Part shown: in pieces, positions 1-37,584 of the stretch | How positions within the stretch are numbered: the stretch's first letter is position 1 | Layout of the letters: the number at the start of each line of letters is the position of its first letter | DNA from: a virus | Taxonomy: Duplodnaviria; Caudoviricetes | IMG/VR virus record: IMGVR_UViG_3300022181_000052 | Span: 1 to 37,584 of that record | DNA: 37,584 nucleotides | Strand: one strand, 5' to 3' | Translations under genes and position numbers: made by a program | The notes under the pieces: model-generated | What the model saw: only the letters and a program-made list of their open reading frames with translations | Databases searched by the model: none | Told to the model about the DNA's origin: nothing

Positions 1-19
1 TAAGGCGCTGTCCCTCTTT

Positions 20-62
20 TGATGCCGTGCGCGAAAAATGCGGCCTCCGTGCGCGATAATTC
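20..62 (+). repeat. Phage right end (attR-like) with two transposase-binding repeats
   Basis: CCGTGCGCGA occurs at 25-34 and 47-56, 22 bp apart. The first 23 nt match the Mu R end as I recall it (TGAAGCGGCGCACGAAAAACGCG) at 18/23. Confidence 0.85.
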
Positions 63-98
63 GGCCGCGTCGCCCGTTACACTATGTGTAATTGAGTT

Positions 99-1475
99 TC
101 AAAAACCAAGGGTCGCCCGTCGGTCGGATGGCCCTTGCCGCGTCTCCGGGGCCGGGGCATCGGTCAAGTTCTCAAACGCGGTGTACTTCTTCAGGAAGGC
201 CAGCTCCACCTCACCCACCGGGCCGTTGCGCTGCTTGCCGATGATGACCTCGGCGATCCCGGCCTTCGGGTTGTCGTCCTTCTTATTGTAGAACTCATCC
301 CGGTACAGGAACACGATCACGTCGGCGTCCTGCTCGATGGCCCCGGACTCGCGCAGGTCCGAGAGCATGGGGCGCTTGTTCGTGCGCTCCTCCACCTTGC
401 GGTTGAGCTGCGACAGGGCGATGACCGGGATGTTCAGTTCCTTGGCCAGGGCCTTCAGGTTCCGCGAGATGTCCGAGATTTCCTGTTCGCGCGAATCGAT
501 GTTGCGGCTGGAGCGCATGAGCTGGAGGTAGTCCACGACCACCAGCCCCAGCTTGTGCTCGGCCTTGAGGCGGCGGCAGCGGGCGCGCAGCTCCAGGGTG
601 GACAGCGCCGGGGTGTCGTCGATGAAGATGGGGGCCTTGCCCAGCGTGTCGGCGGCCTCCGAGAGCTTGGCCCAGTCCGCGTCGTCCAGGAAACCCGAGC
701 GCATCCGGCCCAATTCGACGCGGCCTTGGATGGCCAGCAGACGGGTCATGAGCTGCTCCATGCTCATTTCCAGGGAGAAGACCGCCGTGGCCACCTCGGA
801 CTTGACCGCCGCGCGCAGGGCCAGGTTCAGGGCGAAGGCCGTCTTGCCCATGCTCGGCCGACCGGCCACGATGACCAGGTCGCTCGGCTGGAGCCCGGCC
901 GTCATGTGGTCCAGCGCGTGGTAGCCGCTTGGGATGCCGGTGACGGCGCTTTTGGAAGCAAACCGCGCCTCCAGCTGATCAAAGACCCGGTCCACCAGGG
1001 GCTTTGCCGCCCAATAAGTCTTTTGGACCTTCGCCTCGGCGATCTCGAAGATCTGCTTCTCCGAGGCGTCCAGCAGGGCGTCCACGTCCCGGGCCTCGTA
1101 GCACTCGGAGATGATCCCGCTGGAGACGTCGATGAGGCGGCGCAGCACGGACTTGTCGCGCACGATGCGGGCGTGGTGCAGGGCGTTGGCCGCGCTCACC
1201 GGGGAATCGGCAAGCTCCGCCAGGTACACCGGGCCGCCCACCTTATCCAGGTCGCCGGACTGCTTGAGGGCCTCCGTGACCGTGACCAGGTCCACGGGCT
1301 GGGATCGCTCGGCCAGGTGCAGGAAGCTCTTAAAGATGGCCGCGTGGGCCGGAGAATAGAAATCCTCCGGGCCCACGTGGTCGATCAAAGAATTGAGCGC
1401 GTCCGGGCGGAGGAAGACCCCGCCCAGGACCGCCTGCTCGGCCTCCAGGGCCTGGGGGGTGAGGCGCGCGGTCAC
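99..1475 (-). CDS. dnaB: Replicative DNA helicase DnaB, full length, located inside the prophage
   Basis: N-terminal LEAEQAVLG, Walker A GRPSMGKT, FSLEMS, VVVDYLQLM, LSQLNR, LSDLRESGAIEQDAD and KQRNGP motifs. GTG start overlaps the upstream stop (GTGA). Confidence 0.97.
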   Translation of the reverse strand: MTARLTPQALEAEQAVLGGVFLRPDALNSLIDHVGPEDFYSPAHAAIFKSFLHLAERSQPVDLVTVTEALKQSGDLDKVGGPVYLAELADSPVSAANALHHARIVRDKSVLRRLIDVSSGIISECYEARDVDALLDASEKQIFEIAEAKVQKTYWAAKPLVDRVFDQLEARFASKSAVTGIPSGYHALDHMTAGLQPSDLVIVAGRPSMGKTAFALNLALRAAVKSEVATAVFSLEMSMEQLMTRLLAIQGRVELGRMRSGFLDDADWAKLSEAADTLGKAPIFIDDTPALSTLELRARCRRLKAEHKLGLVVVDYLQLMRSSRNIDSREQEISDISRNLKALAKELNIPVIALSQLNRKVEERTNKRPMLSDLRESGAIEQDADVIVFLYRDEFYNKKDDNPKAGIAEVIIGKQRNGPVGEVELAFLKKYTAFENLTDAPAPETRQGPSDRRATLGF

Positions 1476-1840
1476 GACGCGCCCTCGGGGTCGAGTTGAG
1501 CCTCCCGGATCGCCTTCTTCTCCAGGTACGCCTTGCAGTCCTTACACGTCCTCGGATTTTTCCCCGCCTGGCAGTCCATCGGGTAGTGAGAACTCCACTC
1601 CTTACAATGGCCCCTGGGGCATCTGTTGTGCCCATCGAGCAGACTGATGCAAATATGGATAGCCTCGCGCAGGCGCGCCTTGTCACCACGAGTCCTACAG
1701 CGATCGCCGAGATGCACAAAAAACGCCTTGACGTGCGAGTCATCCTCCACACCGAAATCTCCCCAACGCAGGCGCTTCCGGCTTGCCGTGTGGGACCGAA
1801 CCAGACGCGGAATGTCGATCCAATAGTAAGGGTCAGCCAT
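1472..1840 (-). CDS. Hypothetical Cys-rich (probable Zn-binding) protein
   Basis: 122-aa ORF overlapping both neighbours. C-terminal CPRGHC...C...CKDC. Lower GC than the flanks. Confidence 0.7.
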   Translation of the reverse strand: MADPYYWIDIPRLVRSHTASRKRLRWGDFGVEDDSHVKAFFVHLGDRCRTRGDKARLREAIHICISLLDGHNRCPRGHCKEWSSHYPMDCQAGKNPRTCKDCKAYLEKKAIREAQLDPEGAS

Positions 1841-2219
1841 TATACACCCCCATCACCTTGCCAATAACGCACCACGGCTCGTGGCCTGAGTACGGGTTCT
1901 GGCGGCAGCGCGGGCATTTGCCGTCACTGCACCATTGCACCTCGGCCAAAGCCTCGCGCAGGGCGGCAATCTCGGACCGGAGGCCGCCGAGGCTGCCGGG
2001 CCGGTCGTCGGCATCCTCCAGGGTGATGCCGTGCGCCGACTGGAACTCGGCATAGGCGCTCTTGATCGCGGCCATCCCCTCCTGGAGCTTGTCGCGCTCG
2101 TCCACGACCTCGCGCACCAGGTCCACCAGCTCACGCAGCTTGGCGCTGGAGATGCCTGGGAACTGGGCAGGAGAGAGAATGCGTATCAGAAGCTCCTCAA
2201 GACGCGGATCAACGGGCAT
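1833..2219 (-). CDS. Hypothetical protein with coiled coil and CxxC...H...C motif
   Basis: Start taken as MPVDPR (ATG 2219, downstream of GGAGGTG). Overlaps the adjacent genes. Contains CPRCRQNPYSGHEPWC. Confidence 0.7.
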   Translation of the reverse strand: MPVDPRLEELLIRILSPAQFPGISSAKLRELVDLVREVVDERDKLQEGMAAIKSAYAEFQSAHGITLEDADDRPGSLGGLRSEIAALREALAEVQWCSDGKCPRCRQNPYSGHEPWCVIGKVMGVYNG

Positions 2220-2442
2220 TATGCACCTCCATCTCAAAATCAGCCTGGCATTCAGCGCAGCGCTCGGCGTCCGGCAGCACGGCCAGGCGCGCGGACGGGA
2301 TGGGCTCCCCGCACTCGCGGCAGCAGGGAACGCCGTCGATCCAATCCGGCCCTTGGCCCGAGGCGCGGTTGGTGACCCGGGCCAGGGCTTCGGCGTTGTC
2401 CAGGGCGATGGCCAGCTGGCTCATGTCGACCTCGTCAGCCAC
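2209..2442 (-). CDS. TraR/DksA C4-type zinc finger protein
   Basis: N-terminal MADEVD acidic tip, then CRECGEPIPSARL...CAECQ, typical of phage TraR-like proteins. Confidence 0.9.
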   Translation of the reverse strand: MADEVDMSQLAIALDNAEALARVTNRASGQGPDWIDGVPCCRECGEPIPSARLAVLPDAERCAECQADFEMEVHNAR

Positions 2443-2445
2443 GGC

Positions 2446-3165
2446 CTACGCCCCCTGCGGCGGCAGCGTGTAGGCCACGGCGATGGACTGCACGGCCGCC
2501 ACATCCTGGGCGGCTTGAATCCGGTCCATGTAGCCGTTGCGCTGCCCCTCGACGTAGAGGCCGATGGAGCGCCACGCGGCGCGGTTGGCGCGGATGCGCT
2601 CGGCCTGTTCGGTGATGGTCAGGTCGGCTCCGCCGGAGGCCACGCGGCCAGCCACGAGCTGGGCCAATCCCGGGCACTGGGCCTCGGTGATGGTTCCGGC
2701 CAGGAGCGCCTCGGCCTCGGCGGCCTGCACGTCCCAGGTGGCCATGCTGTACTGGCCGTATTCGGGCTGAATGGCCGCGATATAGGAATCCATCGCCGCC
2801 TTGGCTTCGTCGCGCTTGAGCGCCTTGGCTTCGTCCAGTGTCAGGCCGTAGTAAGGATCGTGCAGGTCGGCCAGCTCCTCCAGGCTGGAGGGGCAGCGAA
2901 CTAGATCCCAATGGGCCGGGACCACGTGGGCGGGGATGACCTCGCCGGTGACCTCGTGCGTGGACTCGGGGACTTCGACGTCCGGCCGCCGGATGACGAC
3001 GCTCGGGAATGCGCTCGGGTACATGCCCGGATGGTCGGCGAGGTATTGCGCCACGGCCTGGGAATCGGTGTACCACTCGATGATCGTATGCCCCTGGCCG
3101 GAGGCCGAGGCCACGAAGGCGCGCGACTCGGCCGACTGGCGGTTGTGCAGAATGATGAAGCCCAT
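2446..3165 (-). CDS. Tail-fibre-associated or assembly-like protein
   Basis: ATG at 3165 after GGAGG. Follows the fibre genes. The C-terminal 'TWDVQAAEAEA...AERIRANRAAW...IQAAQDVAAVQSI' resembles proteins found downstream of tail fibres. Confidence 0.6.
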   Translation of the reverse strand: MGFIILHNRQSAESRAFVASASGQGHTIIEWYTDSQAVAQYLADHPGMYPSAFPSVVIRRPDVEVPESTHEVTGEVIPAHVVPAHWDLVRCPSSLEELADLHDPYYGLTLDEAKALKRDEAKAAMDSYIAAIQPEYGQYSMATWDVQAAEAEALLAGTITEAQCPGLAQLVAGRVASGGADLTITEQAERIRANRAAWRSIGLYVEGQRNGYMDRIQAAQDVAAVQSIAVAYTLPPQGA

Positions 3166-3185
3166 GTATGCCTCCATATCCGGCT

Positions 3186-4307
3186 CTAAGCCGGGTCGAT
3201 CTTGTGAGGTCCGATGACCGCGCCCGCGCCGCCCGCGCCGCCGGTGACGGGATAGGACGCGCTGCATGCGCCTCCGACGCCTCCGGCCGCCGAAATGCCG
3301 CCCGCGAAGCTGTTGCCACGCGCGTAGAGCACGACCACGACGCCACCCCCGGAGCCGCCGCCGGTGGCGGCCTGATAGGCGGACACGTCGCCGCCGTCAG
3401 TGCCCTTGGATTCAATGACTCCCGACCCGGACAAGGTGCCGCCCACGATCAGGATCAAAAGGCCGCCGGTTCCGGCGTCGCCCGCCGCGCCGCCCTGGTC
3501 CCCGGCCCCGCCGGGATTGCCCGCGCCGCCGGTGCAGGGCGTGGTGGAGTCGTAGCCGTCGGCCGCGCCGCCCGCTCCGCCGTAAGCGGCGGCCGGGCCT
3601 CCCGTCTGGAGGTCGTGGTTCGAACTGCCACGGGTCGCGCCGCCGCCTCCGCCGCCGCCGGAAAAACACGTCCCGGCCGCGCCCGCGCCACCGTTGCACC
3701 CGACGGACCCGCCGCCGCCTCCGCCTCCACCGGAGCCGTTGGCCGCAGTCCCGCCGGTCGGGCCGGTGCCGTTGTATTCCACGGCGGTTGCCGGGGCTCC
3801 GGCCCCTCCGATGCGTGGGATGCGGATGACCCGGCCGTTGCCGGTCACGCGGGGTTGCTTCGTTTCGGCGGCGGCCGCCGCCGCGCCGCATCCCCAGAGG
3901 AGATCCTCGTCCGTGTCCGTGTCCGTGACCCCGGCGGCGAGGCGGCGGATGGTGATGCCGTCCGCCGGGACCGCATGTCCGCAGCCCGGGGCCACGGGGG
4001 TGTTGGCCGTGACTGCCGCGTCCGCCGGATTGGCCTTGCAGCCTCGCCCGGTCATGGACAGCTTGCCGTTGATGACGCAGTCGCCCGTCACGTAGACGAG
4101 CAGGCCCCTGCACCGCGCGGCCGTGGTCAGGGTTTTCCCGGCGTTGATGGTCAGGCTCTTGTAGTGTTTGACCACCATGTCGCCGTCTTGGGTCGCGGCC
4201 AGGGAGGTGTCGGCCGAGATGACCACGTCGCCGTCGGTCCCCTCGCCGAAGTAGTTCCGCGCCGCGTTCCGGCGGCGCAGGTCGGGATAGCTGCGGTGCT
4301 GGCTCAT
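3186..4307 (-). CDS. Glycine-rich tail/receptor-binding protein
   Basis: Start MSQHRSY (4307). N-terminal 'YFGEGTDGDVVIS' followed by extensive GGxG repeats. Located in the tail-fibre region. Confidence 0.7.
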   Translation of the reverse strand: MSQHRSYPDLRRRNAARNYFGEGTDGDVVISADTSLAATQDGDMVVKHYKSLTINAGKTLTTAARCRGLLVYVTGDCVINGKLSMTGRGCKANPADAAVTANTPVAPGCGHAVPADGITIRRLAAGVTDTDTDEDLLWGCGAAAAAAETKQPRVTGNGRVIRIPRIGGAGAPATAVEYNGTGPTGGTAANGSGGGGGGGGSVGCNGGAGAAGTCFSGGGGGGGATRGSSNHDLQTGGPAAAYGGAGGAADGYDSTTPCTGGAGNPGGAGDQGGAAGDAGTGGLLILIVGGTLSGSGVIESKGTDGGDVSAYQAATGGGSGGGVVVVLYARGNSFAGGISAAGGVGGACSASYPVTGGAGGAGAVIGPHKIDPA

Positions 4308-4309
4308 GG

Positions 4310-5605
4310 TCAGCTCCAGGCCTCGGCGCGGCCGACGACGCGGTACTGGATCTCCAGCCCGATGAGCCAGGCCGGAACCGGCATGGCCGCGCCCGCGCCC
4401 GCGTAGTCCGCGTCGCGGGTCACGCGCAGGGTGATGCGGTCCCCGGTTTGCGGCGTCGCGCCGCAACTGATGGGCGCGGACGCCGCGCTGACGTGCTCGC
4501 GCAGGTTGGTCGACGCCGGGCCCACCTGATCCTCCACGGTCACGGCACCCCCAAACGGCAGGTTCCAAAGGTTCCGGTTGGCGATGGTGCTTTCGCCGGT
4601 GGCCCCGGCGGCCAGCTTCCAGCCCACATATTGCCCCTCGACCGCGGTGCCCAGGGCGGGCACCCAATGCAGCTTCGCCCGCATGGCCCCCTTGTCCCAA
4701 TTCTGGGGCAGCACGAAGGCGGCCTCGGCCGCCGTGTCGGCGACAGTCCCGAACTCCATGTAATCCACGTTCAGCAGCGACGAGGCGTATTCGTTGGTCC
4801 CGGCCGTGGCTCCATTGGTCTTGCAGGGGACCATCGCGCCTGCGCCGATCCACATGGTCTCGTAGCGGGCCACGTAGGGGAGCTGCGCCGATCCGCCGTG
4901 GTTGTACCAGTACAGGCTGCCCGCGCTCTTGATCGCGAGCGTTTCGGCGGGTTGGATGTCGAAGGACGATACGCCCTGGGCGGCCCGGGACAGCACGATC
5001 TTGTCGGTCCCGGCGCATTGCAGCGTGACCGGGTATTGGCCGCTGTGGACGAATTCAAACCCGGCACCGGACACCGGGGCGCATACCGTGGCGGGCGGCA
5101 GATTGATCGTGATCGGCCCCGCTCCGCCGACCACCAGAAGCATCCCGATGTCCGCCGCCGTCAACGTGCAGGACTCCGAGATCCCGCGCAGGCCCCGGAA
5201 GTTGCCGAGGGCGCGCTGCACGAACGCGGTGGTGGCGGGGGATTCGTCGGCGTCGAACTGCGGGGGGGTGGTGAACGCCCGGTGGGCCTCGGGGTTGGTG
5301 TTGTGGGCGGCGATGTCCGCCCCGAAAACTTCACCGATCGCGGCCCACAGTCCGTCCACGATCTTCTGCGGGTCTCCATCATCCACCACGCCCGGGGCGT
5401 ACCCCTCGGCGATAAACTGCGCCACGCCGTTACAGAAGCGGGTGACCTGACGCATGGCCGTGTTCGCCAAGGCGCGGCGGGCGATCCCGACCTGGTGCCC
5501 GAGCGGAGTCTGTACATCCGCGGCGTAATCCGCAGGGGACATGACGTCCCCGGACGCCGTGGTTCCATTTTTCGCAAACACCTGAATTTCGTTGATGATC
5601 GACAT
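4310..5605 (-). CDS. Tail fibre protein
   Basis: N-terminal anchor 'ANTAMRQ...VAQFIA...VVDDGD' and the fibre motif 'TPPQFDADESPATTAFVQRALGN'. Directly follows the baseplate genes. Confidence 0.8.
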   Translation of the reverse strand: MSIINEIQVFAKNGTTASGDVMSPADYAADVQTPLGHQVGIARRALANTAMRQVTRFCNGVAQFIAEGYAPGVVDDGDPQKIVDGLWAAIGEVFGADIAAHNTNPEAHRAFTTPPQFDADESPATTAFVQRALGNFRGLRGISESCTLTAADIGMLLVVGGAGPITINLPPATVCAPVSGAGFEFVHSGQYPVTLQCAGTDKIVLSRAAQGVSSFDIQPAETLAIKSAGSLYWYNHGGSAQLPYVARYETMWIGAGAMVPCKTNGATAGTNEYASSLLNVDYMEFGTVADTAAEAAFVLPQNWDKGAMRAKLHWVPALGTAVEGQYVGWKLAAGATGESTIANRNLWNLPFGGAVTVEDQVGPASTNLREHVSAASAPISCGATPQTGDRITLRVTRDADYAGAGAAMPVPAWLIGLEIQYRVVGRAEAWS

Positions 5606-27205: not shown

Positions 27206-27838
27206 TTACTTCGCGTCGACGATGAGGCACTGCTCCAGACGCGGGATGCCGAGCGTCGCGCCACGCGCGAGGCCCTCCACGATGACGGATTGTCCCTTCT
27301 TCAGCGCGGCGGCCTTGTCCAGGGCGGAGCAGGCGGTCGGCCCCTTCGTTGATTTGATTTGCACGTCGTAGAGCGCGGCATGCACCTGAGCCGTTCCGTA
27401 CTCATCAGCCGCGAGAGCCACGTAGGGATCTCCGGTGATGTCCTTGGAGACGGAATCCACGCGGCCTTTGACCTGGACCCACTTGCCTTTGTACTTCGCG
27501 TCGGCCGAGACTTCGTTGGCGCTGTACTCGTTGTACATCCGGGCCGCGCTCGTGGGCACGACGTCACCGGCGGAGAGCTGCTTGTCGACCCGCTGCTTGA
27601 GTTTGGCCAGGATCTTATCCTCTTGCTGGGCGGAGGGAGGCTGCTGCGCCGGGCTGCCCAGCGTCTTTGGGTGTCTGGCCTGCAAGAAGGCCACGGCGAG
27701 CAGCACCGCGACGGCCAGGATGACGTAGTGTTTGAAGGTGAGCTTCTGCTTGGGCTTGAGCTTCATCCCGCAATGAGGACAGGACGAGGCCTGATCCGAT
27801 ACCTGGGCCCGGCACTCCGGGCACTCGCGCAAAGCCAT
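27206..27838 (-). CDS. Zinc-ribbon + TM + OB-fold (tRNA_anti-like) membrane protein
   Basis: 'CPEC...CPHCG', one TM, 'YNEYSANEVSADAKYKGKWVQVKGRV'. Directly downstream of the repressor. Confidence 0.8.
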   Translation of the reverse strand: MALRECPECRAQVSDQASSCPHCGMKLKPKQKLTFKHYVILAVAVLLAVAFLQARHPKTLGSPAQQPPSAQQEDKILAKLKQRVDKQLSAGDVVPTSAARMYNEYSANEVSADAKYKGKWVQVKGRVDSVSKDITGDPYVALAADEYGTAQVHAALYDVQIKSTKGPTACSALDKAAALKKGQSVIVEGLARGATLGIPRLEQCLIVDAK

Positions 27839-27858
27839 GCGAACCTCCCTATCTCGAT

Positions 27859-28599
27859 CTACAGCGCCTCGTGGCACCACCAAATGACGCGGCCGATAAT
27901 GCGCACCACGTCGGCCATGTCGCCCGACATGTCGATCTCGACCGGGGCATACGCCGGGTTGGCGCTGCGCAGCACGAGCTTGCCGGGCAGACGCTCCACC
28001 AGCTTGACCACGACGGTATCCTCAATCCCCACACCGTAAACTTTTCCGGCCAATATCTCGGCCTGCCCCTTGTCGATGAGCACCGTGTCGCCGTTGCGGA
28101 GCATGGGCTCCATTGAATCGCCCGACACCTCCATCAAGACCATCTTGTCCGGGGTGCCCTTGGCGCGCAGCCAGTCCGAGCGGAAGGCATAGAGCCCACG
28201 GACCTCGGCGCCGGTTTCGAAAGAGCCTCCGCCTGCCGACAGGCGCGCGGTCACCTTGGGCACCATGAGCAGACCATCCACCGCCACCGGCTCCGGCGAT
28301 GTCGGGCTCGCGGCGGCAGGCCGTGAGGGTTCGGTTTGTGCGCTAGTCGGCGCATAGACCGGCCCGGAACCCAACAGAATCCATTCCGGGGACGCCCCCG
28401 TCTTTTGACACAGGTCTGAAATCGTATCGGCGCCCGGGGTCCGAAACCCTTTTTCGTACCCGCGCAGGGTGTTGATGTTCAGTCCGAGGAGATCCGCGAA
28501 ACGCTCCTGGGTCATGGAGCCGCGCACGATTTTCAAGCGTCCGGCAAGGGTTGAGGCGTCTTGTTCTGGCTTCACTGTAATCCGTTCTTTTTTCAGCAA
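27859..28599 (-). CDS. CI-like repressor (XRE HTH + S24 peptidase); exact start uncertain (TTG 28599 or GTG 28575)
   Basis: HTH 'TQERFADLLGLNINTLRGYEKG..P', cleavage site 'LSAGGG', catalytic 'GDSMEP' and 'VKLV'. Confidence 0.92.
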   Translation of the reverse strand: MLKKERITVKPEQDASTLAGRLKIVRGSMTQERFADLLGLNINTLRGYEKGFRTPGADTISDLCQKTGASPEWILLGSGPVYAPTSAQTEPSRPAAASPTSPEPVAVDGLLMVPKVTARLSAGGGSFETGAEVRGLYAFRSDWLRAKGTPDKMVLMEVSGDSMEPMLRNGDTVLIDKGQAEILAGKVYGVGIEDTVVVKLVERLPGKLVLRSANPAYAPVEIDMSGDMADVVRIIGRVIWWCHEAL

Positions 28600-31637: not shown

Positions 31638-33386
31638 ATGAACGCGAACCTCGGCGAACTGGACCTCCTGCGTGATCTGGCCGCGCGCCTGGCCGCCGCC
31701 CCCCACGGCGGCCGGACCGCGATGGTGGACGCCGCCGCGCAGACCCTGCGCGTGAGCCGCCAGGAGGTCTACCGCCGACTCGCGGCCGTGGGCTTCAGTT
31801 CCGGCCGCAAACCCCGCGCGGACCGGGGCCGCTGCATGGTCGACGAGGACGTGGCCAAGCGCGCGGCGGCCCTGGTCCAGGGGGCGCGGAGGAAGAGCGG
31901 CAAGAAGACCATGCCGCTCTCCGAGGCCCTGGAAATCCTGCGCGAAAACGGTGTGGGACAGGTGGACCAGGAAACCGGCGAAGTGGTCCTGCCGCAGTCG
32001 TCCACAACGCTCTCCAGGGCCATGCGCAAGTACGGCTGCCATCCGGCCATGCTCGTGCAGGGCAAGCCCCATTCCCACATGCAGAGCCCCCACCCCAACT
32101 GGTGCTGGCAGATCGACGCCTCGCTCTGTGTCCTGTTCTATCTGCCCAAGGGTGGACTCCAGGTCATGGAGGAAGGGGTCTTCTACAAGAACAAGATCAA
32201 AAACCTCGAACGCGTGGCGCGGGAGCGCGTCTGGCGCTACGTGGTCACGGATCACTATTCCGGGGCGCTCTACGTCCGCTACGTCCAGGCCGCCGGTGAG
32301 AACGCGGAGAACCTCGTGGAGACGCTCATCCTGGCCATGCAGCCGCGCGGCATGGAAGACCCCATGCACGGGGTGACGCGGAACCTGCTCATGGACATCG
32401 GGTCCGCCAACACGTCCTATCTCTGCCTGAATTTCCTGAAGAACATGAAGGTCAACGTCCTGGTCCACAAGCCCGGGAACTCCCGGGCGAAAGGGCAGGT
32501 CGAGCAGGCCCAGAACCTGGTGGAGACCCAGTTCGAAGGTCGGCTGGCCTACATGCGCATCCAGAGCATCGAGGAGTTGCAGGCGGCGGCGGACAAGTGG
32601 CGTCGCCATTTCAACGCCTGGGCCGTGCATTCGCGGCACGGCCGGAGCCGTAACTCCATGTGGCTGACCATCACCGAGGAGCAGCTGCGCCTGGCCCCGA
32701 GCGTCGAGTTGTGCCGCGAACTCGTGGTGACCAAGCCCGCGCAGGCCACGGTGCGAGACGACATGACCATCACCTACAGCCTCAAGGGATTCGGCCGCCA
32801 CACCTACGATCTGCGCTACATCCCGGGCCTGGTGCCCAAGATGAAGGTCGTGGTGATGGTCAACCCCTACCGCGCCCCGGCCGTGGACGTGACCACGCTC
32901 AACGAGCGTGGCGAGGAGACGGTCTGGACCGTGGAGCCCGTGGAGATCACCGAGGCCGGGTTCCGCGCGGACGCGGCGGTCATCGGCCAGGCACACAAGA
33001 CCCTGCCGGACACCGTGGCGGACCGCACTCTCAAGGAGATCGAGGCCGCCGGGGTCGTGGCCGGACGGCAGAGCGGCGAGGCCCCCTACGGCCTGGACGT
33101 GCTGGCCGACCTGCGCGAGGCCCCGGCCTACATCCCGCGCCGTGGCCGCGACCTGGGCCTGGACGCCGCGCGGCGCGAAATCCCGCCCATGAGCCACGTG
33201 GAGGCGGCCCGGCTGCTCAAGGCGCGCGTGGGCGCGGCCTGGACGTCCGAGACTTACGCCTGGCTCACCCAGCGCTACCCGGACGGCGTGCCGCCCGAGG
33301 ACATCGACACCATAGCGGCCCAGCTCACCGGACCGGCCCCGCACAAGGCCGTGCCGCTGCGCCTGGCCACACAAGGAGGGCTCTAG
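31638..33386 (+). CDS. Mu-type DDE transposase A
   Basis: N-terminal HTH with 'RKPRADRG'. Catalytic 'HPNWCWQIDAS', 'LMDIGS', 'RAKGQVE'. Confidence 0.93.
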   Translation: MNANLGELDLLRDLAARLAAAPHGGRTAMVDAAAQTLRVSRQEVYRRLAAVGFSSGRKPRADRGRCMVDEDVAKRAAALVQGARRKSGKKTMPLSEALEILRENGVGQVDQETGEVVLPQSSTTLSRAMRKYGCHPAMLVQGKPHSHMQSPHPNWCWQIDASLCVLFYLPKGGLQVMEEGVFYKNKIKNLERVARERVWRYVVTDHYSGALYVRYVQAAGENAENLVETLILAMQPRGMEDPMHGVTRNLLMDIGSANTSYLCLNFLKNMKVNVLVHKPGNSRAKGQVEQAQNLVETQFEGRLAYMRIQSIEELQAAADKWRRHFNAWAVHSRHGRSRNSMWLTITEEQLRLAPSVELCRELVVTKPAQATVRDDMTITYSLKGFGRHTYDLRYIPGLVPKMKVVVMVNPYRAPAVDVTTLNERGEETVWTVEPVEITEAGFRADAAVIGQAHKTLPDTVADRTLKEIEAAGVVAGRQSGEAPYGLDVLADLREAPAYIPRRGRDLGLDAARREIPPMSHVEAARLLKARVGAAWTSETYAWLTQRYPDGVPPEDIDTIAAQLTGPAPHKAVPLRLATQGGL

Positions 33387-34547
33387 ATGCTGCAACGGCT
33401 CAAGAAGTGTCTGGATGAATATGGAATCAGCCAGGCCGAACTGGCGCGGGCCGTGGGGATCAGCGGCCCCAGCATGTGCAGGATCATGCTGCGCGGCGAG
33501 TGGCCCCGGCGCACCCGGACCGAGGCGCTCCAGGAAAACATCCGCGCTGTCCTGGCCGAGCGGGACGTGCCCCGGGCGGACATGAAGGATCTGTTCGAGA
33601 ACCCCGACGCCGAACGCGCCGGAGAACCGCAGGAGGATGAGATCATGTTGTTGAGCAGGCAGACCCTGTTCCGCGAGACCAAGCAGCATTTCAAGCTGTT
33701 CTGCAATCCGTTCAGCGAGGACATGCGGTCCTCCGAGGACGTGTTCTTGAGTGCGGACATCCGCTACGTGCGCGAGTCGATGTTCAACGTGGCCAAAAAC
33801 GGCGGGTTCCTGGCGCTCGTCGGGGAGTCCGGCAGCGGCAAGAGCACCCTGCGCCGCGACCTCATTGCCCGGCTGGCCGAGGAAGCCCCCCAGGTCGTGG
33901 TGATCGAGCCCTACGTGCTGGGGATGGAGGACAGCGACAAGAAGGGCAAGACGCTCAAGTCCTCGCACATCGCCGAGGCCATCATGGACAGGATCGCGCC
34001 CACGGAAGTGCTGGCGTCCAGCTCGGAAGCGCGGTTCCGCCAGGTCCATCGGTCGCTCCTCAATTCGGCGCGCGGCGGCCAGAGCCACGTCCTCATCATG
34101 GAGGAGGCCCACGGCCTGGCCATCCCGGTGCTCAAGCACCTCAAGCGGTTCTGGGAGTTGGAGGACGGGTTCCGCCGCCTGCTCTCCATCATCCTCATCG
34201 GCCAACCCGAACTCCAGGCCAAGCTGGCCCGGGGCAACTACCAGGTCCGCGAAGTGGTCCAGCGCTGCGAGGTCGTGGAGCTGCGGCCCCTGGGCAAGGA
34301 TCTCCAGGCGTACATCCAATTCAAGCTCACGCGCGCGGGGATCAAGGACACGACCGCCGTCATCAGCGACGAGGGCGTGGAGGCCCTGCGGGAGCGGCTC
34401 ACCGGCCCGGTGGCTCGCCGAGGCGGCCGGGAGGTCGTGAGCCTCTGCTACCCGCTGGTGGTGGGTAACATGATGATCGCCGCCATGAACGTGGCCGCCG
34501 AGATCGGCGTGCCCCAGGTGAACCCGGACGTGATCCGGCAGGTGTGA
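33387..34547 (+). CDS. MuB-like / ExeA-family AAA ATPase with N-terminal HTH
   Basis: HTH 'ISQAELARAVGIS', Walker A GESGSGKS, Walker B 'LIMEEAH', 'LIGQPEL', 'EVVQRC'. Confidence 0.92.
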   Translation: MLQRLKKCLDEYGISQAELARAVGISGPSMCRIMLRGEWPRRTRTEALQENIRAVLAERDVPRADMKDLFENPDAERAGEPQEDEIMLLSRQTLFRETKQHFKLFCNPFSEDMRSSEDVFLSADIRYVRESMFNVAKNGGFLALVGESGSGKSTLRRDLIARLAEEAPQVVVIEPYVLGMEDSDKKGKTLKSSHIAEAIMDRIAPTEVLASSSEARFRQVHRSLLNSARGGQSHVLIMEEAHGLAIPVLKHLKRFWELEDGFRRLLSIILIGQPELQAKLARGNYQVREVVQRCEVVELRPLGKDLQAYIQFKLTRAGIKDTTAVISDEGVEALRERLTGPVARRGGREVVSLCYPLVVGNMMIAAMNVAAEIGVPQVNPDVIRQV

Positions 34548-34945: not shown

Positions 34946-35413
34946 ATGGACGTGATCAAGGGAGCCGAGCTGCTGCTCTCCGATGTAGCCGGGGCCGCGC
35001 GGACCCTGGCCGACCGGACGGCCGAGGCCAACGCCGCGCTGGAGGAACTCCGGGCCCTGCACGCCCCGGGCGTGCAGGAGGCCAAGGCGGCCCTGGACGA
35101 CGCCGAGAAGGCCCTGGAAAAGCACTGCAAGAAGCACCAGACCACAATCTTCGGGGACCGCGACCGCGTGGACCTCAAGCACGGCGCGCTGCTGCACGGG
35201 GTCCGCAAGGTCGTGCGCAAGGCGAAAAAAACCACGGTGGATCTGCTGGAAAGGCTGGGCTTCACGGACGGCGTCCTGGTCACCAAAAGCGTGAACTGGG
35301 ACGTGATTGAGAAGTGGACCGACGAGCGTCTGGCCGCCATCTATACGGAGCGCAAAAGCAAGGAGACCTGGGGCTACGAACTGAAGAAGGCGAAGGAGGA
35401 CCGTCATGGGTGA
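34946..35413 (+). CDS. gam: Gam-like host-nuclease inhibitor
   Basis: Helical N-terminus, 'VDLKHG', 'SVNWDVI', 'KETWGYE'. Position downstream of the B gene. Confidence 0.65.
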   Translation: MDVIKGAELLLSDVAGAARTLADRTAEANAALEELRALHAPGVQEAKAALDDAEKALEKHCKKHQTTIFGDRDRVDLKHGALLHGVRKVVRKAKKTTVDLLERLGFTDGVLVTKSVNWDVIEKWTDERLAAIYTERKSKETWGYELKKAKEDRHG

Positions 35414-35603
35414 GGAGGACCGCGGCGCCCTGCGCGCCGTGAAGCAGCTGGAGGCCCGGGTGCTGCAACAGCAGCGCCTCATCAAGGACATGGCGAAGTT
35501 CATCAGGAGCGTCCGCGAAGGCAAGCTGTTAACCGTTCTCTACATGAAGAACCAGGCCAAAACTCTGGAAGAGCGGGCGCAGTCCGCCGAACTGCAGAGC
35601 TGA
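35406..35603 (+). CDS. Hypothetical coiled-coil protein
   Basis: 65 aa, GGAGGA RBS, overlaps the gam stop. Confidence 0.6.
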   Translation: MGEEDRGALRAVKQLEARVLQQQRLIKDMAKFIRSVREGKLLTVLYMKNQAKTLEERAQSAELQS

Positions 35604-35613
35604 GGGAGGGGGT

Positions 35614-35775
35614 ATGCGCATTCTCGTGAATCTGATGCTGACCATCCTGCTGACCGTGGCCGCGCCGCTCATCTACGCGGGCGAGCTGGTCCGGCTGGTC
35701 GTGAGCGCCACGTTCAATGTGGAGCTGCTGCGGGACTTCGTAAACGGCTACCGCGACATCTGGCGGACCAACTAA
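35614..35775 (+). CDS. Small membrane protein (53 aa, not in the ORF track)
   Basis: GGAGG RBS. MRILVNLMLTILLTVAAPLIYAG hydrophobic N-terminus. Fills the operon gap. Confidence 0.55.
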   Translation: MRILVNLMLTILLTVAAPLIYAGELVRLVVSATFNVELLRDFVNGYRDIWRTN

Positions 35776-35807
35776 CCGGCGATTGCCGAACACAAAGGAA
35801 CGGAACC

Positions 35808-35978
35808 ATGAGCGTGATCGTGCGGCCCCAGGAAGAAATCGACGATCTCATCAACCGCTGCTTCGACGCTGAAAACAACGGCGACTCCAAGTACCCCGGC
35901 ATGACCTACGAGCAGGGAATCAAGGACGGCATGCTGTGGCTCACGGATGAGGACGAGCCCAACCCCCTGGAAGACTGA
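35808..35978 (+). CDS. Small acidic phage protein (56 aa, not in the ORF track)
   Basis: MSVIVRPQEEIDDLINR...SKYPGMTYEQGIKDGMLWL; AAAGGA RBS. Confidence 0.65.
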   Translation: MSVIVRPQEEIDDLINRCFDAENNGDSKYPGMTYEQGIKDGMLWLTDEDEPNPLED

Positions 35979-36040
35979 TGCGAAACCGCCCCGTATGGGG
36001 CGGTCGCTGGCCGGTGGCGCGGTCAGCCTGAAGAGCAGCC
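35979..36040 (+). ncRNA. Type II hammerhead ribozyme
   Basis: TGC-GAAA-CCGCCCC[GTAT]GGGGCGG-TC^-GCTGGCCG[GTGGCG]CGGTCAGC-CTGAAGA-GCA. All core nucleotides and three stems are present. Predicted cleavage after C36005. Confidence 0.88.
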
Positions 36041-36055
36041 GAGAGGAGAGTAGTT

Positions 36056-36265
36056 ATGCAAGAAATCCGTCGCGATGGGTCACTCGGTCCGATTGAGCCC
36101 TATGACCCGGAACGGCTCAAGACCCTGCTGGGAAATCCTGATGTCGCTGAAGTCCGTGTTTTCCGCGCATCCGGTCCTGACCAGATCAAGAAGATGAATC
36201 AGAAGATGAAGCGGCGCGCCAAGAGAAAAAGGGCAAAAGCCTCGCAGCGTAAGAACAGAGGATGA
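36056..36265 (+). CDS. Hypothetical protein with a highly basic C-terminus
   Basis: GAGGAG RBS; C-terminal KKMNQKMKRRAKRKRAKASQRKNR. Confidence 0.7.
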   Translation: MQEIRRDGSLGPIEPYDPERLKTLLGNPDVAEVRVFRASGPDQIKKMNQKMKRRAKRKRAKASQRKNRG

Positions 36266-36266
36266 C

Positions 36267-36572
36267 GTGACCATACTGCCCCTGACCGCACACGCCGCCC
36301 GCCGTATGGCGGAACGCAACATCACGGCCCCGATGGTGGCTGCGGTCTTGCGGTGCGGCGATGTGGTCCCGGGCACCGAGGACGGCACGATCTCCCATCG
36401 CCTCTGCGGTCTGCGCGTGGTGACGAGCGTCGAGCACGGCGTCATCATCACCGTCTGCGCCGAGCGGAGTTGTCCGGCCGAGCCTGGCCCCAAGCGCCGG
36501 GCCCGGCTGGCCGGACAACTCCGCCGCAAGTACAGCCGCGAAGCTCGCCTCTATAATGGAATGAACTGGTAG
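36267..36572 (+). CDS. DUF4258-like protein
   Basis: 'LTAHAARRMAERNIT...V..VL..G...LRVV....VIITV'. Confidence 0.7.
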   Translation: MTILPLTAHAARRMAERNITAPMVAAVLRCGDVVPGTEDGTISHRLCGLRVVTSVEHGVIITVCAERSCPAEPGPKRRARLAGQLRRKYSREARLYNGMNW

Positions 36573-36581
36573 GAGGACGCC

Positions 36582-37022
36582 ATGCCCACGCCCACGCGCA
36601 ACCTGGAACCCTACAAGCGCAAACTAGTCCAGCTCATCCACGTGGCCAAGTCGAATCTCGGCCTGGACGATGAGGTCTACCGCGCGTTGCTGCGGTCCAA
36701 GTCTGGCCGGGAGTCCTCCAAGGACATGAGCATCAGCCAGCTGGAGGCCGTGCTGGACCATCTGCGCACGTCCGGGTTCGCCCAGACCAAGAAGCACAAG
36801 GGCAAGGAGCTAGAGCGCGATCCGCAGAGCCGCAAGATTCGGTCCCTCTGGCTGGAGCTGCACGAGCGGGGCGCGATCAAGGACAAGAGCGAGGATGCGC
36901 TGGCCGCCTTCGTCAAACGCCAGACCGGCGTGGAGAGCCTGCGCTGGCTGAATGGCTACCAGGCCGCGACCGTGATTGAGTCGCTCAAGCGCTGGATTGA
37001 CCGCATCCCCGCGAGGTCATGA
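36582..37022 (+). CDS. gemA: GemA / Mu gp16 (DUF1018) protein
   Basis: 'LIHVAK..LGLDDEVYRALL', 'KIRSLW', 'ALAAFVKRQTG', 'VIESLKRW'. Confidence 0.9.
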   Translation: MPTPTRNLEPYKRKLVQLIHVAKSNLGLDDEVYRALLRSKSGRESSKDMSISQLEAVLDHLRTSGFAQTKKHKGKELERDPQSRKIRSLWLELHERGAIKDKSEDALAAFVKRQTGVESLRWLNGYQAATVIESLKRWIDRIPARS

Positions 37023-37369
37023 TGGATGAGACGCCCCGCCATATCGCCGCCGAGCTGCTCCAGGATCTGGCTGACCAGGCCGCCGACGCCGCCCGGAAGA
37101 TGCTGGGGGCGTCGTCGCGAGCTGCCGCCGATTTCGGCAAAGAGCTGGCGTTCCATATGGCTGAAAACTGGGGCGGGCAGAGCGTCTACATCCCAATGGA
37201 TCTGGCGGGGCGTCGCAGCGAGCGGAACGAACAGATCTACAAAAAATTCAACGGCGCGAACGCTGCCGGACTCGCGCGGGAGTATAAGATCAGCGTCCAG
37301 ATGATCTACCGCATCATCAAGGCCGAACGCGCCGCGCGGGCGCAAAAGCAGTACAGCCTGCTCGGCTGA
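37019..37369 (+). CDS. mor: Mor/C-family transcription activator
   Basis: 'WGGQSVYIP', 'RNEQIYKKFNG.N...LAREYKIS...IYRII'. Confidence 0.92.
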   Translation: MMDETPRHIAAELLQDLADQAADAARKMLGASSRAAADFGKELAFHMAENWGGQSVYIPMDLAGRRSERNEQIYKKFNGANAAGLAREYKISVQMIYRIIKAERAARAQKQYSLLG

Positions 37370-37445: not shown

Positions 37446-37487
37446 GGTTATCCTGCACACCCCCTCCAATTATCCTGCCCGTGATCA
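37446..37487 (-). repeat. Phage left end (attL-like) with two transposase-binding repeats
   Basis: TTATCCTGC at 37448-37456 and 37470-37478 (22-bp spacing). CA at 37486-37487 aligns in register with the other end. Confidence 0.75.
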
Positions 37488-37584
37488 CAAGAGACTCCCA
37501 TCCCCCCGCCTTTCTGAAACGGGCCGAAGGCCCCCCCGGCTTCGCCACCCCCTTCGGGGGTCTCCAGAACAGCCAAGAGACTCC

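Follow-up and report, generated by a model that had tools for sequence, protein, structure and literature searches.

A captured host-type dnaB gene inside the end of a B3/BcepMu-type transposable phage

Phages that copy themselves by replicative transposition are the textbook example of borrowing the whole replisome: a transposase and an ATPase are all that they supply. In Mu, as described in PMC3325207, PriA remodels the strand-transfer fork, the replisome is built with DnaT, DnaB, DnaC and Pol III, and in every round of replication DnaB and Pol III have to be loaded there under the direction of PriA. The virus record IMGVR_UViG_3300022181_000052 raises the question of why such a phage would carry a host-type DnaB helicase of its own. 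The stretch analysed here (the window) is 37,584 nt in length and contains a whole B3/BcepMu-type transposable phage at positions 20-37487, as determined by PHROG and Pfam scans of its open reading frames (ORFs), with a full-length dnaB gene inside its left end. The gene in the window is a captured host gene, not the chromosomal gene, and it is under purifying selection. The host appears to be a sulfate-reducing bacterium like Desulfovibrio aminophilus. Several unrelated transposable phages carry this central replisome enzyme, derived from their own hosts and kept under selection.

The dnaB gene is located at 99-1475 on the minus strand and encodes a protein of 458 aa. Its stop codon lies 79 nt from base 20, inside the phage end. 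The protein scored 574.9 bits against the DnaB family TIGR00665 (cut-off 385.25) and passed for both DnaB domains of Pfam, DnaB (PF00772) and DnaB_C (PF03796). All six helicase motif patterns were intact, comprising what we take to be Walker A, the catalytic Glu, Walker B, H3/H4 and the Lys/Arg finger. The scores against phage-type DnaB families fell short of their cut-offs (447.7 versus 498.65 for TIGR03600 and 472.8 versus 655 for the SPI-7-type family). The N-terminus is 30 residues shorter than that of a 479-aa host protein, and the C-terminal tail differs too.

Does this gene belong to the phage? The left end is base 20 (TGATGCC...), and it is exact because three different host flanks join there: that of the window, that of L162 and that of L144, which is contig C10 of genome G009. 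From base 20 onwards L162, a metagenome contig not necessarily from another sample than the window's, showed 0 differences from the window over 11,438 nt behind its different flank. The right end was placed at 37487, where the ungapped match to the left end (26/46) was the highest among 4,527 TG-starting positions, and an 11-nt motif is present twice at each end, at the same two offsets, 22 nt apart. A 36,296-nt contig of run X2 that starts at 1194 would finish at about 37489, near this right end. No direct repeat was present in the two flanks of the window, where a 6-bp target duplication was looked for; they are not a target duplication and therefore likely come from different insertions, as expected after phage transposition. 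Between the ends we found TnpA (phrog_310), TnpB (phrog_296), GemA, Mor, Gam and two divergent arms with gemA near one end. Together with TG...CA ends and variable host flanks, these are the marks of B3-type organization given in PMC8705779. The transposase is 41.5% identical to BcepMu gp9. An earlier interpretation of this DNA from its letters and translations (the sequence-only reading) had put the phage end at base 20, the dnaB stop about 80 bp inside it, and intact motifs between a short N-terminus and a seemingly non-conserved C-tail, all of which was borne out. It had also called the element Mu-like; it is a transposable phage, but its layout is of the B3/BcepMu type and not that of Mu proper.

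Two artefacts could mimic this arrangement: the assembly may have wrongly joined a chromosomal dnaB to a phage ORF, or the true phage end may lie upstream of 1475. In their favour, the X1 and X2 contigs that cover the gene stop within dnaB, below base 828, and bases 1-150 are without cover. However, both runs also contain a second, similar dnaB, with which these breaks coincide, and the contigs of X1 (828-4500) and X2 (1194-4500) each match the window with 0 differences and cross the junction between dnaB and the upstream gene ORF122 (1472-1475). X1 or X2 may itself be the run behind the window. Runs X3 and X5 (0.48 of words, in scattered short contigs) and the RNA runs (0.06-0.15 of words) were not used as evidence. 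The same dnaB-to-end segment was found in G009:C10, and L162 is identical from base 20 behind another flank. Host dnaB genes are flanked by rplI and a gene for a paaK-like ligase, neither of which is in the window. Misassembly and a host-gene reading are ruled out by the contig spans, the variable flanks and the host gene context, and we regard an artefact of either kind as next to impossible. The short start common to two phages had also prompted the idea that a phage inserted into the 5' end of a host dnaB and provided a replacement start. This was ruled out, as the 3' side of the gene is a phage end and not the ligase gene.

The chromosomal counterpart was identified in G009. The proteins closest to the window DnaB, with the source name Desulfovibrio aminophilus, come in short-start forms of 458 and 443 aa and in a 479-aa form with the 30-residue extension. 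G009 carries all three, as one chromosomal gene and two phage-end copies. The 479-aa gene stands in the order rpsF-rpsR-rplI-dnaB followed by the paaK-like ligase gene (gene names are our reading of the translations), and the window protein is 85.0-85.7% identical to D. aminophilus-type chromosomal DnaB, with different termini. Both short forms lie inside phage ends, one on C10 with the window's end and the other on C13 with another end type, which pairs with a Mu-type prophage on C15 via a 5-bp duplication. A phage with a podovirus-like virion (L081, L163, G007) ends in its own short-start dnaB and the second end type, with three different flanks. Since dnaB occurs in the ends of window-type, Mu-type and podovirus-like phages, the gene moves among unrelated phages of the D. 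aminophilus host group. In a quick tree the window protein nested among Desulfovibrionaceae chromosomal genes. The sequence-only reading had proposed exactly such a captured host-type gene, with the host keeping its own copy, and had named a DnaB tree as a check. It would have been abandoned had this been the host's only dnaB with the end upstream of 1475, or a misassembly; the G009 copies, the flanks at base 20 and the junction-spanning contigs dispose of both.

Several prophage structures were seen around these copies. Contigs C13 (L145) and C15 (L154, L155) of G009 make up a whole Mu-type prophage, one end of which starts with TA and not TG, and it lies between a tRNA gene and an apparent CRISPR repeat (both by eye). 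A tRNA-integrating reading of L115 and L145 was dropped: each of the two finishes at a Mu-type end, and the 5-bp duplication makes L145 the partner of G009:C15. Contigs C74 (L267), C54 and C49 (L115/L153) of G007, together with L081 and L163, are a candidate transposable podovirus. They hold a Mu-type transposase, an ATPase, a gemA region and then the start of a putative tail fibre, presumably T7-type; the link between C74 and C54 is only presumed. The podovirus-like virion genes end in dnaB and the Mu-type end that was seen with three different flanks.

To survey the trait in Desulfovibrionaceae, at most 4 candidates were scored per genome. At least two DnaB matches at E 1e-60 were found in 44/401 genomes, with 48 extra matches. 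The context was read for 46 of these, the other two being adjacent pieces of one gene. The commonest extra dnaB was a lambdoid/ICE-type second copy (ICE, integrative and conjugative element), 35-48% identical. Transposable-prophage dnaB was found in 6 copies in 5/401 genomes, two in G009 and one each in G023, G064, G081 and G113. In G023, G064 and G081 the order is transposase, ATPase, small genes, dnaB, gemA, as in an early operon; the G113 contig starts inside dnaB, continues with gemA and has no transposase. Identity to the rplI-linked gene of the own host was 91.5% in G023, 84.3% in G064, 62.1% in G081 and 84.7% in G113, versus at most 68% to any other host row. Each of these four copies was sister to its own host's gene with an SH-aLRT support of 99-100 (quick tree, 81 rows), that of G081 on a long branch. 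A single clade of all 10 phage copies was rejected (p-AU 0.0006); 34 distant, unclassified or redundant rows were left out of this approximately unbiased test, and the group was defined by context and tested after the first tree had been viewed. The dnaB of each carrier phage lineage thus appears to track the gene of its own host. Either repeated capture or a single old capture followed by constant replacement from the host would give this pattern; the two are indistinguishable, and both are host-tracking. The contigs of several other host-like second copies were too short for a classification, and further cases are hidden where assemblies collapsed, as in G007.

Other second copies were noted in the same survey. 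Those of G205 (L173) and G251 (L175) group with their own host's gene at 75% identity, on contigs too short to classify. That of G242 (L171) groups with its own host's gene at 86%, beside a second rplI, and is possibly bin contamination. A separate clade of second dnaB genes was found in nine genomes (L176-L184, in G136, G191, G226, G241, G256, G308, G318, G328 and G337). These are 54-61% identical to the own host gene, have a shortened linker helix and have lost a conserved tryptophan of the docking helix. Their contexts are without Mu markers, and ParA and glycosyltransferase genes are near some of them.

What could the gene do for the phage? We consider it on balance probable that it gives an extra, host-compatible supply of helicase for replicative transposition, comparable with Ban of phage P1. 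Many PriA-dependent rounds of fork assembly take place in a lytic cycle, in which loadable DnaB may become limiting. Host PriA, with DciA, would load the phage DnaB, either by itself or within mixed hexamers. PriA and DciA were encoded in 5/5 host genomes tested, and an IstB/DnaC-type ATPase was found in 0/5 (E 1e-10). The phage protein would still have to fit host primase and polymerase, and such a need would account for the choice of the own host's gene in each phage lineage and for a core refreshed by recombination with that gene, with no foreign helicase imported. In the window phage, transcription of the late arm would reach dnaB last, so that the gene would help later rounds; in the four other prophages it lies in the early operon, a position that favours a replication role. 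The comparison with Ban made in the sequence-only reading is apt in this respect. Its suggestion that replicative transposition could become less host-dependent was not supported: the copy stays near the host gene, and the PHROG scan of 47 window ORFs revealed no further helicase and no loader, primase or initiator, so the protein looks built to work with host parts.

A role of any kind presupposes that the gene is more than a host fragment acquired by illegitimate recombination and kept healthy-looking by repeated gene conversion. Such a neutral passenger would fit the absence of dnaB from most relatives and the conversion-like tracts. Over codons 86-148 only 5/189 nt differ from the chromosomal gene of G010, with a 137-nt identical run, versus an overall identity of 92.3% between the G009 and G010 host genes, which suggests recent recombination with a host allele; a similar tract of 141 nt is shared by L163 and the G007 host gene. 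However, whole-gene dN/dS (the ratio of nonsynonymous to synonymous rates) among phage copies was 0.13-0.15, and in segments differing from the host gene pN/pS, the corresponding ratio of proportions, was 0.16-0.24 between phage copies (Fisher p ≤4e-4). The signal of selection is not merely inherited by conversion, because it is seen in segments that were not converted from the host. The G023 phage copy has a protein 91.5% identical to that of its host, a pS of 0.73 and a longest identical run of 28 nt; its synonymous sites are near saturation, and therefore conversion alone does not explain its conservation. In addition, dnaB has a new coupled start codon in the window and the frame is open in 10/10 phage-type copies in the tree. 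A neutral passenger is, in our estimate, very unlikely.

The differences between the window protein and the G010 host protein are not spread evenly. Within region limits that we set, guided by solved-structure alignments, they number 23/80 in the head of the N-terminal domain (NTD), 0/63 in the hairpin, 10/28 in the linker helix (LH), 13/79 in the first part of the C-terminal domain, 8/26 in the docking helix (DH) and 3/155 in the motor core. It is possible that the phage kept the host motor and retuned the NTD head and the LH-DH helices, and that mixed hexamers thereby favour transposition forks over oriC, which would divert the replisome from the host to the phage. This clustering argues for such re-routing, as does the fact that LH-DH is bound in common by DciA, DnaC and lambda P (PMC9912922). 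The phage-specific segments are conserved among phage copies and the 30-residue N-extension of the host is absent. On the other hand, the share of differences in LH and DH (0.30-0.32) is above the host-host median of 0.19 but inside the host-host range of 0.08-0.41 (40 pairs), and is suggestive only; an enrichment of changes in LH-DH was rejected on this ground. In the copies of G023, G064 and G113 the DH has just 1-2 changes, and no single substitution at a host-conserved column was common to all 9 pairs examined. We regard re-routing as unlikely.

Several results weigh against the supply of extra helicase as the function of the gene. DnaB was found in 0/22 of the IMG/VR records retrieved with the window's transposase, several of which are fragments. 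The closest relative (G001, 70% transposase identity) has a D12-class methyltransferase in the dnaB slot at the end of the late arm, and 1/30 Mu-type records carries dnaB, with a DnaB identical to the G081 copy. As the last gene of the late arm, dnaB would come rather late to aid replication, and a search of 1-3400 for sigma-70-type promoters gave 0 (0.7 expected). That DnaB becomes limiting in lytic growth is something we infer, and the 23/80 differences in the NTD head exceed what a plain supply role needs. The trait is also scarce more widely: in a phylum-wide search 1/251 genomes had two matches at E 1e-115, its second copy without a transposable-phage marker from the set used. The dnaB carriers are a small minority, because TnpB-like genes occur in 51/151 genomes of the order at E 1e-30 (some may be other ATPases). 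The phage dnaB is thus an accessory, dispensable trait.

The variable terminal slot, which G001 fills with a methyltransferase and BcepMu with an O-acetyltransferase, would also suit a moron that protects the lysogen, where extra DnaB titrates or resists the lambda P-like hijackers of rival phages or helicase-targeting defences. The movement of the gene between unrelated phages of one host group and its altered loader-binding helices are consistent with this. However, no separate promoter was found and the gene is coupled to late-arm genes. In the four other cases it lies in lytic early operons that the repressor should silence in lysogens, and a decoy would not need to keep all catalytic motifs. 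Protection seems to us distinctly unlikely, and helicase supply is still preferred.

A bolder proposal would combine these elements. The phage DnaB may be a host-tracking chimera in which dnaB is repeatedly captured, the core and the primase-side hairpin are refreshed from the host, and the head and the loader-binding helices are tuned by the phage and steer hexamers from oriC to transposition forks. We put this forward tentatively, as a rather unlikely case. If true, it would be a new way of replisome takeover and would provide natural separation-of-function DnaB alleles for the study of PriA loading of DnaB in DciA-type bacteria.

Ban of phage P1 is dispensable, suppresses dnaB(ts) and forms mixed hexamers. 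The window protein resembles the Ban of P1/P7 in being a phage-borne full-length DnaB close to that of the host, and its best matches in the phage collection were P1-type ban genes. As with Ban, a host-like phage DnaB exists alongside an intact chromosomal gene (one chromosomal and two phage-end copies in G009). However, it is not an orthologue of Ban, with 49.6% identity versus 85-86% to its own host, and its place in the tree is among the chromosomal genes of Desulfovibrionaceae. P1 lives as a plasmid prophage and has origins of its own, whereas the carrier in the window replicates by transposition, and in transposable phages the gene appears to have been taken separately in several host lineages. 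The window phage shares with B3/BcepMu phages and Mu the two-arm layout, TnpB, Gam, GemA, Mor, TG-CA ends, variable flanks and a size of 37.5 kb. BcepMu differs in having no helicase among 53 annotated genes; its annotation includes an SSB (single-stranded DNA-binding protein) and an HU of its own, so that host-type helpers have a precedent among these phages. Mu differs in relying on host PriA, DnaT, DnaC and DnaB (PMC3325207), and the words helicase and DnaB are absent from the available part of a survey of Leptospira transposable prophages. The DnaB-like helicases of lambdoid phages and ICEs (TIGR03600, SPI-7-type, SPP1 G40P) likewise place a DnaB fold on a mobile element, but the window DnaB is below both curated cut-offs, has no adjacent initiator or origin, and is 85% and not about 40% identical to the host gene. 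No prior report of dnaB in transposable phages appeared in searches of the literature. A phage-borne host-like DnaB is already known from P1 Ban; a host-like dnaB in transposable phages seems to be new. The finding suggests that the supply or loading of helicase is a bottleneck in hosts with DciA and not DnaC, and the host-phage allele pairs (62-92% identical) could serve to test which DnaB surfaces matter in restart and which in origin loading.

The window phage is a two-armed myophage by PHROG and Pfam. The late arm runs on the minus strand from holin to tail fibre, the repressor is central, and the early arm on the plus strand holds the transposase, ATPase, gam, gemA and mor in the gene order of BcepMu. 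The features are as follows.

1-19, no strand: host flank outside the phage, different from the L162 and L144 flanks; bases 2-19 match the host site in G009:C10 (18/18).
20-60, plus: left phage end (TG) with the 11-nt motif at 27 and 49, putative transposase-binding sites; from the three flanks and the register with the right end.
77-91, no strand: 15-nt perfect palindrome with 6-bp arms between the dnaB stop and the end, read from the sequence and identical in G009:C10.
99-1475, minus: dnaB, 458 aa; TIGR00665, motifs, 85.0-85.7% identity to chromosomal DnaB, pN/pS.
1472-1840, minus: ORF122, Cys-rich, of no family (no PHROG, NCBIfam or Pfam match).
1833-2219, minus: ORF128, a helical region and a C-terminal Cys/His cluster, of no family; 83% counterpart in the G009 Mu-type prophage.
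2209-2442, minus: TraR/DksA-type C4 zinc-finger protein, 77 aa; PF01258 at 42.2 bits, phrog_54.
2446-27043, minus: late arm with holin, endolysin, terminase, portal, head, contractile tail, baseplate and tail fibre (PHROG).
27206-27883, minus: superinfection-exclusion-like protein with a zinc ribbon and a tRNA_anti-like domain, directly after the repressor (PHROG, Pfam).
27859-28599, minus: CI-type repressor between the arms (phrog_4).
31638-33386, plus: transposase TnpA of the B3/BcepMu (Tn552-related) type; phrog_310, 41.5% to BcepMu gp9.
33387-34547, plus: transposition ATPase TnpB; phrog_296, AAA_22.
34946-37369, plus: gam, gemA and mor at the far end of the early arm (Pfam Gam, GemA, Mor).
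36267-36572, plus: early-arm gene of the DUF4258 family; G009:C15 holds a relative (PHROG, Pfam).
37447-37487, minus: right phage end (CA), in which the end motif occurs twice; best match to the left end.
37488-37584, no strand: host flank, belonging to a family of short repeats dispersed in the host, with dozens of matches in G009 and G010.

The genes next to dnaB are tightly coupled to it. The coding regions of dnaB and ORF122 overlap by 4 nt (GTGA), those of ORF122 and ORF128 by 8 nt and those of ORF128 and traR by 11 nt, and traR starts 3 nt past the stop of the last tail-region gene. A chain of overlapping codons continuing from the tail operon, as claimed from the sequence, thus runs from dnaB through ORF122 and ORF128 to traR; at the tail-region gene the link is tight but without overlap. 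ORF122 gave just 2 matches in a search of 5.8 billion proteins, no PHROG, NCBIfam or Pfam match, and a single 9-residue chance match in viral contigs. In Atlas searches the best scores of ORF122 (0.77) and ORF128 (0.89) were all below 0.9 and are leads only. ORF128 is also present in the Mu-type prophage on G009:C15 (83%) and was not found in L163, L147, L169, L172 or L185; ORF122 was found only in the window. The gene directly upstream of dnaB varies from carrier to carrier, and neither ORF122 nor ORF128 shows a conserved linkage to dnaB. The sequence-only reading had offered the small ORFs as possible loaders, which now looks unlikely because the neighbours of dnaB change between carriers. 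A predicted complex of two DnaB(148-440) chains with ORF128 scored 0.00 versus a mark of 0.32 and is informative neither way.

Some minor observations were made on the ends and on G009. A search of viral contigs with the left-end pattern found 0 matches. Members of the dispersed short host repeat family are in or beside 3/4 known flanks of this end type, and the L162 flank looks coding; a target preference for dispersed host repeats is possible. Positions 1-30000 of G009 C3 (L156, L157) hold nested prophage remains, with myovirus tail genes up to the start of a dnaB (labels by eye), and a serine recombinase and podovirus-like structural genes were also recognized there by eye.

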